Made by a program: the position numbers
Shown here: positions 18,001-21,000 of the stretch, one piece after another
Layout of the letters: the number at the start of each line of letters is the position of its first letter
Position numbering within the stretch: the first letter of the stretch is position 1
Virus record (IMG/VR): IMGVR_UViG_2541047867_000011
Span: 1-21,616 of that record
Direction: 5' to 3' (one strand)
Source: a virus
Lineage: Duplodnaviria; Heunggongvirae; Uroviricota; Caudoviricetes
DNA length: 21,616 bases

Positions 18001-21000
18001 AAAACATGGTGCCGCACTGGTTCAGTGCCAGTCAGTGGCAGCTACCGAACGAAAGCGATTATCTGAAATTACAGTCGCTGTTTGCCCGGGTGGCAGAAGA
18101 GAAACATCAGCGCGGGGAACTGGAAAAGCCACACCACCAGCTGGTCAGCACATACAGTGAGCTGAACCGGCAGTATATGGAACTGCTGAGTGAATATAAA
18201 AATTTGCGGCGGTATTTCGGTGTGACGGTGCAGGTGCCGTACACCGATGTGTGGACGTATAAACCGGTGCAGTACTATCCCGGGAAACATCCGTGCGAAA
18301 AACCGGCAGAAATGCTGCAGCAGATAATCAGCGCAAGTAGTCGTCCTGGTGATCTGGTTGCGGATTTTTTCATGGGGTCGGGTTCAACGGTAAAAGCGGC
18401 GATGGCACTGGGGCGTCGTGCGATTGGTGTTGAGCTGGAGACCGGACGTTTTGAGCAGACAGTCAGGGAAGTTCAGGATTTAATCGTTTGAAACGGATGA
18501 GATTGCAGTATTAATTCCGTAACGTTATTATTCTGCGCGCGGCCCTTTAGCTCAGTGGTGAGAGCGAGCGACTCATAATCGCCAGGTCGCTGGTTCAAAT
18601 CCAGCAAGGGCCACCATCACATACCGCCATTAGCTCATCAGGATAGAGCGCCAGCCTTCGAAGCTGGTTGCGCGGGGTTCGAGTCCTCGATGGCGGTCCA
18701 TTATCTGTACCCTGCGTTGTTAGCTCAGCCGGACAGAGCAATTGCCTTCTAAGCAATCGGTCACTGGTTCGAATCCAGTACAACGCGCCACACTTATTTT
18801 CCCTGGCTCGCTTTTGCGGGCCTTTTTTTTAAATGTCTCACAATTCAGACGGTTGACAGTTGTCTGTTTTGCGGGGAGTTTGTTAAAAGAAACTGGCATG
18901 GTGAATCCCCCTGTGCGGAGGGGCAATCAGCGAGTAGGTATATGGGATAATCGCGGATTCAGGTGCTGGTACTGAATTCACCGGGAGGCACCCGGCACCA
19001 TGCAATGGCACATAGCGCCACTCTCCAGCCCCTCTCCGGAGGGGCTTACATATTGCCAAAAAACTGCTCCCGTATATCCCGAATAACGCGGGGATCCTGC
19101 TGGTACCATGCTGTCGTGGTGGTTCGGCATTCACCCAGGGCGCGGAGGGGACATTCAGTGCGGACGCGGGGGCCAGCCAGGATTCGGCACGCTGGGGTGT
19201 GGGTAAACCGCTATATCAGGACCTGATTGCGCGCACTAAAGCTGCATTACAGAAGAACCCGAAAAATGTGTTGCTGGCGGTGTGCTGGATGCAGGGCGAA
19301 TTTGACATGAGCGCTGCCACCTACGCACAGCAACCGGACCTGTTCACGGCCATGCTGAAGCAGTTCCGTACTGACCTTTCCGGATTTAACGCGCAGTGCC
19401 ATGGCGGCAGTGCTGCAGTTGTACCGTGGATTTGTGGTGACACGACGTATTACTGGAAAAATACATACGCTACCCAGTACGACACCGTGTACGGAGGGTA
19501 TAAAAACAGGGAGAGTGAGGGCGTTTATTTTGTGCCCTTCATGACAGACGGTAACGGCGTCAATACCGCCACTAACGCACCGGCAGAAGATCCGGATATT
19601 CCGGCATCAGGATATTACGGTGCGGCATCGAGAACGAATGGAAACCAGGTATCATCAAACCGCCCGACACATTTCAGTTCATGGGCGCGCAGGAGCATTA
19701 TTCCGGATCGTATGGCAACCGCTATTCTGAACGCAGCCGGGCGCACCTCAGCCTTCATCAGTGGTAAGGCACCGGAAATCAAACCCTCGCCCGGCGTCGA
19801 CACGCCATCGGGGCCGTCTGAAGATGCATCCGTACGTACAATCTCCCTGTTGCCGACAGCCGGAGATGCTGCTGCGCAGGGCTGGAGCATTAAGAATGGC
19901 GGAATTCAGTTGTCAGATGGTGTATTTAAGATCACCAAGCAGAGCAATAAAGCCTGGTCCCTGACGCGCCCGGTGGATGACGCAGTCTCCCTGCTGACAC
20001 GGGGTGGCAGACTGAGCTGTAAGTTTCGACTGTCAGGCGCACTGACCAACAACCAGTTCGGTCTGGGAATTTATCTGTATACCGATGTAGCGTTACCTGA
20101 CGTCGTGGCGATGACCGGGACTGGTAACCCGTTCCTGATGTCGTTCTTCACCCAGACCACAGACGGCAAACTGAATCTGATGCATCACAAGAAAGCCGGA
20201 AACACAAAGTTGGGCGAGTTCGGGAATTACAGTAACGACTGGCAGACGCTGGAGCTGGTGTTCACCGCCGGCAGTGCCACGGTTACTCCGAAACTGAATG
20301 GAGTGGCTGGCCCGGCATTCCAGGTCATAAAAGACAGTCTGACAGTGGGACTAAATGCACTGACGCTGACGGATATTACCAAAAATGCAACGTATGGCGT
20401 TGAGATAGAAAGTCTGGTGCTGGAGATAAATGCACCGGCATCATCATAAAAAGTGAGCCAGTCAAATGGAAGGTATCGTTAAACTCACCGGTAGTGTCAG
20501 TGGGTCGTCTGAGACGCCTGCATGAGTTATCAGAGCCATCAGTACTTAACTGGTGGCTTTTTTATTGTTGTCAGCTTCCGGATAACGGGAGACGGGGTAT
20601 GTACCAGATGGAAAAAATCACAACAGGTGTGTCATACACCACGTCAGCGGTGGGAACGGGCTACTGGTTCCTGCAGTTGCTGGACAGGGTTTCCCCGTCT
20701 CAGTGGGCGGCAATAGGCGTGCTGGGGAGTCTGCTGTTTGGGCTGCTGACATATCTGACTAACCTGTATTTCAAAATCAGAGAGGACCGTCGTAAGGCTG
20801 CACGGGGAGAGTAATTCAATGACTCAAAACTATAAACTGATTGTGAAAGGGATCCGCAATTTTGAGAATAAAGTTACGGTAACTTTAGCGTTACGGGACA
20901 AAAAACGCTTTGACGGTGAAATTTTTGACCTGGACATCTCGCTGGACCGTGTTGAAGGTGCCGCGCTGGAGTTTTATGAGGCAGCAGCCAGAAGGAGCAT

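Follow-up and report, generated by a model that had tools for sequence, protein, structure and literature searches.

A 685-bp deletion has very probably left a dead remnant of nanS-p, a gene for a sialic-acid esterase, in the late region of a lambdoid Escherichia coli prophage

Introduction

The NanS-p esterases encoded by prophages of Escherichia coli remove O-acetyl groups from Neu5,9Ac2 and enable lysogens to use sialic acids derived from mucin for growth (review PMC8065619). Here, we describe a nanS-p locus that has lost the front part of its gene. It lies in IMG/VR virus record IMGVR_UViG_2541047867_000011 (positions 1 to 21,616); the whole stretch of 21,616 nucleotides (nt) that was analysed is referred to below as the window, and it represents the left arm and the late region of a lambdoid E. 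coli prophage. The element under study is an open reading frame (ORF) of 416 codons located between the transfer RNA (tRNA) genes and the holin gene, which a first-pass annotation of the sequence had described as an esterase-like gene without its 5' end. We conclude that this ORF is very probably a dead remnant of a prophage nanS-p gene, which codes for a sialic-acid O-acetylesterase, after a recent deletion of 685 bp, and thus an ordinary prophage pseudogene.

The closest described system is NanS-p itself (z1466 of phage 933W; gp84, also vb_24B_21, of phage phi24B), whose 617-aa allele WP_000874341.1 occupies the same genomic position, between the tRNA and small RNA (sRNA) genes on one side and the holin gene on the other. 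According to Pfam, the full-length protein consists of DUF1737 (PF08410) at residues 3-49, SASA at residues 66-262, and DUF6645 at residues 467-577. In gp84, the homologue from phi24B, DUF1737 reportedly serves for capsid decoration (bioRxiv 10.64898/2026.04.10.717836), and the C-terminal domain of NanS-p is a lectin-like jelly-roll (Franke et al. 2020, as cited in that preprint and in PMC8065619). The chromosomal counterpart NanS (YjhS), the structure of which is available as 3PT5, is a single-domain periplasmic enzyme. The SGNH blocks in 3PT5 are GQSNA (with Ser19), RGGSAF, MQGEFD, and SHFS (with His301) (PMC10792757), and the catalytic Ser and His of NanS were confirmed by mutagenesis, as stated in PMC10017367. 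The typical order of this prophage region is sRNA, sialic-acid esterase, (PasA/PasC), holin, and lysozyme, and the sRNA STnc100 is related to the PasD sRNAs (bioRxiv 10.64898/2026.05.13.724894).

A segment of 685 bp is missing between the sRNA terminator and nanS-p codon 150

The window was compared with three intact loci, namely those of O104:H4 2009EL-2071 (L003), isolate 30602_6#35 (L004), and AR_0372 (L005). In all of them the order is methylase, three tRNAs, a gene of 1,854 nt, and then holin, and the 1,854-nt gene is annotated as a 'SASA family carbohydrate esterase' of 617 aa (WP_000874341.1). The overall closest prophage is that of L004, with 99.0% identity over 99% of the window. It should be noted that the full-length nanS-p gene of L004 (NZ_OZ040091.1, 2990-4842) is annotated as frameshifted, being 1 nt short. 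Either this gene has decayed there independently, or the long reads contain a homopolymer error.

The blastn alignment to L003 fell into two parts. Window positions 17001-19063 corresponded to L003 1209-3273 and positions 19042-21154 to L003 3937-6050. The two alignments overlap by 22 nt, and 685 bp (L003 3258-3942) are missing from the window. The alignment to full-length nanS-p homologues, suggested earlier as the way to locate the breakpoint, thus mapped the junction to the following place:

19042..19047, plus strand: deletion junction with the 6-nt microhomology GGGCTT, placed by the blastn overlap and a three-way alignment
19027..19046, plus strand: sRNA terminator hairpin with an 8-bp stem and a UCCG loop, found by folding
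19043..20449, plus strand: nanS-p remnant, codons 150-617 and the stop codon of the 617-aa sialate O-acetylesterase, from the collinear alignment

To the left of the junction is the sRNA terminator, and to the right are the nanS-p codons from 150 onward. The intact allele carries an imperfect 22-nt direct repeat, one copy of which (GGGCTTTCTTATGGACAAAAAA, L003 3252-3273) is located just after the stem of the sRNA terminator and the other (GGGCTTACATATTGCCAAAAAA, L003 3937-3958) within the nanS-p gene. These copies are identical at 18 of the 22 positions; by chance, one would expect about 0.02 pairs of this similarity per 1 kb. The window contains a single hybrid copy at 19042-19063, in which the switch from the left to the right copy falls inside the exact GGGCTT. 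Such a pattern, with both copies kept in the intact allele and a single hybrid left in the window, is the classical mark of a deletion that took place between short direct repeats. The first-pass annotation had regarded the gene as a deletion remnant or pseudogene, which the mapping of the 685 bp against near-identical prophages bears out, and had connected it with a rearrangement at this hotspot; for the latter we found instead a simple deletion guided by a short repeat, and no larger rearrangement of an stx-type hotspot.

The intact gene extends over L003 3491-5344, so that the deletion took 233 bp upstream of it and 452 nt of coding sequence, i.e., codons 1-149 and codon 150 up to its second base. 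The deleted DNA includes the ribosome-binding site and the start codon of the intact allele (GGGAGGAttcATG). There is no copy of the deleted 685 bp anywhere in the window, and residues 1-149 were not found elsewhere in it by tblastn (best E 0.13).

In the megablast comparison with phage records, the match to most Stx and lambdoid phages began only at window position 19042. For the best records it was split in two, and about 600-700 additional bases lay in between. In the case of phage JLK-2012 the two parts are window 18826-19012 and 19042-20600, between which 610 nt are replaced.

The esterase domain has lost its nucleophile

The features of the remnant are as follows:

19043-19732, plus strand: remainder of the NanS-like domain
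19856..20434, plus strand: intact C-terminal lectin-like jelly-roll domain (PF20350, E 1.5e-19)
19994-20326, plus strand: Pfam DUF6645 core
19115, plus strand: block II, RGGSAF, retained
19289, plus strand: block III, MQGEFD, retained
19667, plus strand: block V, THFS, retained

The remnant has neither a frameshift nor an internal stop, and its protein sequence is 99.4% identical to residues 149-617 of the 617-aa NanS-p (tblastn). The SASA profile, which has 226 positions, was matched at positions 4-157 in the full-length protein, and the relatives likewise match from position 4. Meanwhile, only positions 69-157 were matched in the frame of 477 codons that contains the ORF (E 1.2e-9), and only positions 101-157 in the 416-aa ORF itself. 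DUF6645 was matched in both the 477-aa frame and the 416-aa ORF. DUF1737 is absent from the remnant, as judged by Pfam, and from all frames of the window, as judged by tblastn.

The structure of NanS (3PT5), in which the complete catalytic domain comprises residues 17-332, aligns to residues 60-379 of the full-length protein, of which residues 60-149 are deleted in the window, and the C-terminal domain of NanS-p (PDB 6YP6) aligns to residues 421-613. The 416-aa product starts only at residue 202, and a complete SGNH domain, which would have spoken for an intact enzyme, is not present in it. In the 617-aa allele the motifs are located at residues 71 (GQSNG), 174 (RGGSAF), 232 (MQGEFD), and 358 (THFS). 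The remnant does not contain block I, i.e., the GQSN motif to which the nucleophile Ser and the oxyanion Gln belong. The DNA encoding it was deleted and no relocated copy exists in the window, in agreement with the earlier claim that the N-terminal part with the catalytic serine is missing. RGGSAF lies upstream of the GTG at 19199, and the 416-aa product is thus devoid of blocks I and II.

In comparison with NanS-p, residues 150-617 of the remnant are 99.4% identical, and the rear two-thirds of the esterase domain and the complete DUF6645 are retained. What the remnant lacks is the ribosome-binding site, the start codon, DUF1737, ~90 residues at the front of the esterase domain, and the Ser and Gln of block I. 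Judging by its sequence, it cannot be a functional member of the NanS-p family. In comparison with chromosomal NanS, the remnant aligns from about residue 107 and keeps RGGSAF, MQGEFD, and (S/T)HFS, but the GQSNA found at residues 17-21 of NanS is missing. Unlike NanS, it has a C-terminal lectin-like domain. Since the nucleophile is missing, the esterase activity toward Neu5,9Ac2 is predicted to be absent, and this allele presumably cannot contribute either capsid binding or catalysis, as both modules are lost.

The open frame starts in terminator DNA and has no proper start codon

Two further features describe the frame:

19199..20449, plus strand: 416-aa ORF with a GTG start, as given by the mechanical ORF list and by the gene calls in NCBI assemblies
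19016..19042, plus strand: nine in-frame codons (RHSPAPLRR) of non-coding origin, i.e., sRNA-terminator DNA, identified by translation and alignment

The first-pass annotation had noted that the frame of the GTG-initiated ORF is open for another 61 codons upstream, from 19016. The ORF list and the translation confirmed this: the frame opens just after the TAG at 19013-19015 and comprises 477 sense codons. These 61 codons had been taken for the interior of an esterase, which is correct for 52 of them (19043-19198), as they represent nanS-p codons 150-201 and belong to the region matched by SASA positions 69-157. The first nine are terminator DNA, which in the intact allele sits ~240 bp before the ATG and outside the ancestral protein.

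It had also been stated that the upstream part contains neither a start codon nor a Shine-Dalgarno sequence. Indeed, no in-frame ATG, GTG, or TTG is present from 19016 to 19198. The GGAGGGG at 19038-19044 resembles a Shine-Dalgarno sequence; however, it belongs to the terminator hairpin as its 3' arm, and only an ATT at 19052 follows it in frame. The GTG at 19199 corresponds to residue 202 of the 617-aa full-length protein. No convincing Shine-Dalgarno sequence precedes it, as the upstream sequence is ...cacgctggggt, where the G-run is only 1-2 nt from the GTG. The 416-aa ORF is simply what a mechanical ORF rule returns from the first start codon that it meets.

The spacer after the tRNAs is an sRNA gene with a clipped terminator

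18867..19057, plus strand: STnc100 (PasD-related) prophage sRNA gene, Rfam RF02076

The distance of 225 bp between the last tRNA and the open frame had been considered too short for the missing N-terminal part. The figure is right, as the tRNA ends at 18790, and there are stops in all three frames of 18791-19015; over 18791-19300, many stops also interrupt the two frames other than that of the ORF. However, this DNA is not a leftover spacer, as most of it is filled by the STnc100 gene. The match to the STnc100/PasD family is full-length (model positions 1-206 of 206) and high-scoring (131.8 bits versus a gathering score of 47), and the gene is in the typical place of the family, just upstream of the esterase gene. 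The last ~10 nt of the match (19048-19057) are nanS-p coding DNA that was brought in by the deletion.

The left breakpoint of the deletion is directly after the terminator stem, so that the stem is intact and the U-tract is clipped. The U-rich tail of the terminator is UUUCUUAU in the intact allele and UUACAUAUU in the window; with its context, it reads UUUCUUAUGG and UUACAUAUUG, respectively. Apart from this replacement of the poly-U tail by nanS-p coding sequence, there is no difference between the window and the STnc100 copies in the intact relatives. The folding of 51-nt contexts yielded -18.1 kcal/mol for the window and -19.8 kcal/mol for the intact relative, i.e., the energy of the hairpin is essentially unchanged. 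The terminator passes a simple terminator scan in L003 and fails it in the window, and with the U-tract clipped, the termination of the sRNA may be weakened in the window.

Two other terminator-like hairpins were seen in intact L003. A strong one (GCCCGCG...CGCGGGC and T8) at 3276-3297 on the minus strand is back to back with the sRNA terminator, and another one at 3366-3381 on the plus strand is located upstream of nanS-p. Both of them are within the segment deleted from the window.

The remaining codons are undecayed

All 468 of the 468 remaining codons are collinear with the O104:H4 allele WP_000874341.1, with no indels and with 7 nt and 2 aa differences. Five of these seven nucleotide differences cluster within 46 nt at 20345-20390, which suggests a small recombination patch and not scattered mutation. 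The remnant differs from L004 at about three positions, and there are 0-1 mismatches per 100 nt versus both L004 and L003. On the left flank, the identity to L004 is 99.8%. The 468 codons that remain show no decay, and the deletion is therefore a recent, simple event in an otherwise ordinary allele. As there was no time for secondary decay, the intact frame says nothing about selection, and seven substitutions are far too few to tell a selected gene from a recent pseudogene.

A chimera of two prophages was also considered, as the blastn identity to L004 is 99.8% for the left part but falls to 94.2% for the right part. It was rejected, since the profile per 100 nt places the divergence from ~20740, downstream of the holin gene, and the remnant is near-identical to L004 and L003.

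The deleted allele occurs in two assemblies

Window positions 16199-21616 are 100% identical to the NCBI scaffold KE701447.1 (GCA_000459995.1). In an exact-protein index the 416-aa product was found on two contigs only, KE701447.1 and CAXJUJ010000001.1, the latter being a 5.1-Mb contig of GCA_964045925.1. The junction and its flanks are identical in these two assemblies. In contrast to this, 605 of the 5,426 complete E. coli genomes carry the undeleted arrangement, with the region 18791-19300 in two pieces ~1.19 kb apart, with up to 99.2% identity, and the 35-nt junction string was found in none of the 5,426. The junction was also not found in GTDB species representatives, IMG/VR, or GenBank phages.

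The homologues were searched for in a collection of 5.8 billion proteins at E <= 1e-20, and 1,648 of them were obtained. Their norm is a protein of 613-690 aa with DUF1737, SASA, and DUF6645, and none starts naturally at the equivalent of 19199, which speaks for the truncation proposed earlier. Other homologues of 680-765 aa have a different N-terminus and a complete SASA domain. The entries of 340-480 aa are labelled partial, are located on contigs of 1-5 kb, or are frameshift fragments. For instance, P0025 (417 aa) starts with 'GVGKPLYQ', has no Met, and is flagged as partial, and P0036 starts in a shifted frame. A natural short form, for which database proteins of 380-444 aa were the candidates, was therefore rejected, as these entries are partials at contig ends or frameshift fragments.

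Origin of the remnant and alternative explanations

We propose the following course of events. The ancestral prophage would have encoded a 617-aa NanS-p of three domains (the capsid-binding DUF1737, the NanS-like SASA/SGNH esterase, and the DUF6645 jelly-roll) downstream of an STnc100-type sRNA gene. A single deletion of 685 bp, most likely by replication slippage or another RecA-independent exchange between the imperfect 22-nt direct repeats, then joined the tail of the sRNA terminator to nanS-p codon 150. In this way the gene lost its ribosome-binding site and ATG, DUF1737 in full, and ~90 residues from the front of the esterase domain, among them the Ser of block I and the oxyanion Gln. The remnant has no proper translation start and is probably not translated, and even if it were translated internally, the product should not be an esterase.

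Several points weigh against this explanation. Low-level internal initiation may be possible, with the GTG at 19199 or the ATT at 19052, 9 nt after GGAGG, as candidate starts. Slippage is indicated by the repeat only. The frame is intact over 468 codons, as the frame of a still-selected gene would also be. The NCBI gene callers report the 416-aa product, with the Pfam domains 'SASA (weak), DUF6645'. Finally, the two assemblies that have the junction could come from the same or clonally related strains, which limits the independent confirmation.

Some of these points would suit a product of 416 aa or slightly more that is a genuine expressed short form, catalytically inactive and binding carbohydrates via the jelly-roll. 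Its translation would take place on the late transcript that depends on Q, or after read-through of the clipped sRNA terminator. The unbroken 468 codons and the complete C-terminal domain agree with this, as do the location in the late operon downstream of Q (14933-15628), the presumably weakened tail of the sRNA terminator, the GGAGG placed 9 nt upstream of the in-frame ATT 19052, and the ORF reported by gene callers. However, the canonical starts all lack a proper Shine-Dalgarno sequence, and the GGAGG is buried in a hairpin of -18 kcal/mol. Such a protein would start in the middle of the SGNH fold, without 90-142 of its ~320 residues, and would probably misfold. Moreover, an allele present on only two contigs and in 0 of 5,426 complete genomes gives no sign of spread or selection, and the other short entries in the databases are partials or fragments. 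We therefore regard a genuine short form as very unlikely. There is likewise but a slim chance that the deletion created a new unit, in which the sRNA is read through into the remnant and a dead jelly-roll protein is made from a weak start (ATT 19052 or GTG 19199). If this were true, a protein that binds sialoglycans would become available to the lysogen, or its sRNA would have a changed 3' end and be regulated differently.

An assembly or sequencing artefact, i.e., a collapse of short repeats or of paralogous nanS-p genes hiding a gene that is really intact, deserves attention since the window comes from a gapped draft scaffold with a run of Ns right after the window end, and since E. coli genomes often carry several nanS-p paralogues (matching places per genome: median 2, maximum 14), which are hard to assemble. 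Yet, the identical junction with its flanks is present in a second assembly, on a contig of 5.1 Mb, and an artefact is unlikely to arise in two separate assemblies of which one is contiguous over 5 Mb. Both flanks are near-identical to one related prophage, which argues against a chimera of paralogues, and an imperfect repeat of 22 nt is far too short to collapse an assembly. In our view, an artefact is highly improbable. The reverse course, in which the short form is ancestral and the 617-aa genes gained 685 bp by an insertion or by fusion with a DUF1737 module, could draw on the modularity of DUF1737, which is mostly found as a single-domain protein (bioRxiv 10.64898/2026.04.10.717836), and on some Salmonella and E. 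coli homologues that have other N-termini in place of DUF1737. But these homologues keep a complete SASA domain and are longer (682-765 aa), and the missing segment ends inside the SGNH fold and not at a domain boundary. Block I is lost with it, though every active SASA enzyme, including chromosomal NanS, has this block. In addition, two repeat copies in the intact alleles and one hybrid copy in the window are what a deletion leaves behind. The arguments from block I and the fold effectively refute an ancestral short form, the chance of which is next to nil.

The deletion remnant of nanS-p, which remains our explanation, is comparable to other decayed nanS-p genes of E. coli (the frameshifted gene of NZ_OZ040091; P0036, P0044, and P0047), which show the same kind of decay of accessory (moron-like) late genes. 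Their lesions are different, and the 685-bp junction is found in two assemblies only. The event is an ordinary recent pseudogenisation of an accessory prophage gene and opens no new biological question. Its value is chiefly for annotation: the 416-aa call 'DUF6645 / SASA (weak)' should be marked as a nanS-p pseudogene truncated at its 5' end, and tallies of E. coli nanS-p genes should not include it among the functional sialate esterases. The locus offers a clean, datable example of repeat-guided deletion in the late region of a prophage, and the seemingly 'empty' DNA behind the tRNAs turns out to be an sRNA gene, the terminator of which the deletion clipped.

Neighbouring genes and other features of the prophage

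The rest of the window contains the following annotated features:

1-1314, minus strand: integrase
6995-7726, minus strand: CI-like repressor (lambda-type)
between the CI-like repressor and Q in the gene order: DnaC- and DnaB-like replication genes
14933-15628: Q antiterminator
17442-18491: DNA methylase
18541-18616, plus strand: tRNA with a CAT anticodon (ARAGORN, Rfam tRNA match)
18624-18700, plus strand: tRNA-Arg(TCG) (ARAGORN, Rfam tRNA match)
18714-18790, plus strand: tRNA-Arg(TCT) (ARAGORN, Rfam tRNA match)
18805..18832, plus strand: intrinsic-terminator-like hairpin and T-run directly 3' of the tRNA cluster (terminator scan)

The order of the late region is Q, methylase, three tRNAs, sRNA, nanS-p remnant, holin, a DUF1327 gene, and lysozyme, and the esterase remnant is located within the late operon downstream of Q. 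The cluster of three tRNAs is also annotated by RefSeq in near-identical prophages. The tRNA at 18541-18616 is tRNA-Met (CAT) according to ARAGORN, while RefSeq names the identical gene in related prophages tRNA-Ile; the latter label fits an ileZ-type tRNA, in which CAT is read as lysidine-modified. In the terminator scan the hairpin at 18805..18832 has the sequence GGCTCGCTTTTGCGGGCC followed by TTTTTTTTAA, and this element is also present in the intact relative.

Between the stop codon of the esterase and the start of the holin gene (20450-20600), a strong terminator-like hairpin with a T-run was found at 20532-20560 on the plus strand. The pasA/pasC sRNA genes have been placed exactly between the esterase and holin genes (bioRxiv 10.64898/2026.05.13.724894), and the Rfam search gave no match at 20450-20600. 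Further downstream, the DUF1327/YdfR-family gene (20819-21169) is inside a tract of ~20740-21200 that diverges from L004, with up to 77 mismatches per 100 nt, after which the identity recovers. Downstream of the holin gene, a cassette seems to have been replaced by mosaic exchange. The window ends at 21616, where a run of Ns (a scaffold gap) begins within the lysozyme gene of KE701447.1. The call of a 128-aa 'lysozyme' gene is an artefact of this gap, as the gene has 177 aa in the contiguous assembly.

An Rfam match to the C4 antisense RNA (66.5 bits) was also obtained at 8583-8670 on the plus strand, as in the P1/P7-type immunity system. The match is inside a mechanical ORF of 429 aa (7987-9276), which has the Pfam domains HTH_Crp_2, Phage_ASH, and Phage_pRha (antirepressor-like). 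The C4 RNA and this ORF adjoin the CI repressor gene, which suggests that the lambdoid prophage has a second immunity/antirepressor module that is based on RNA.

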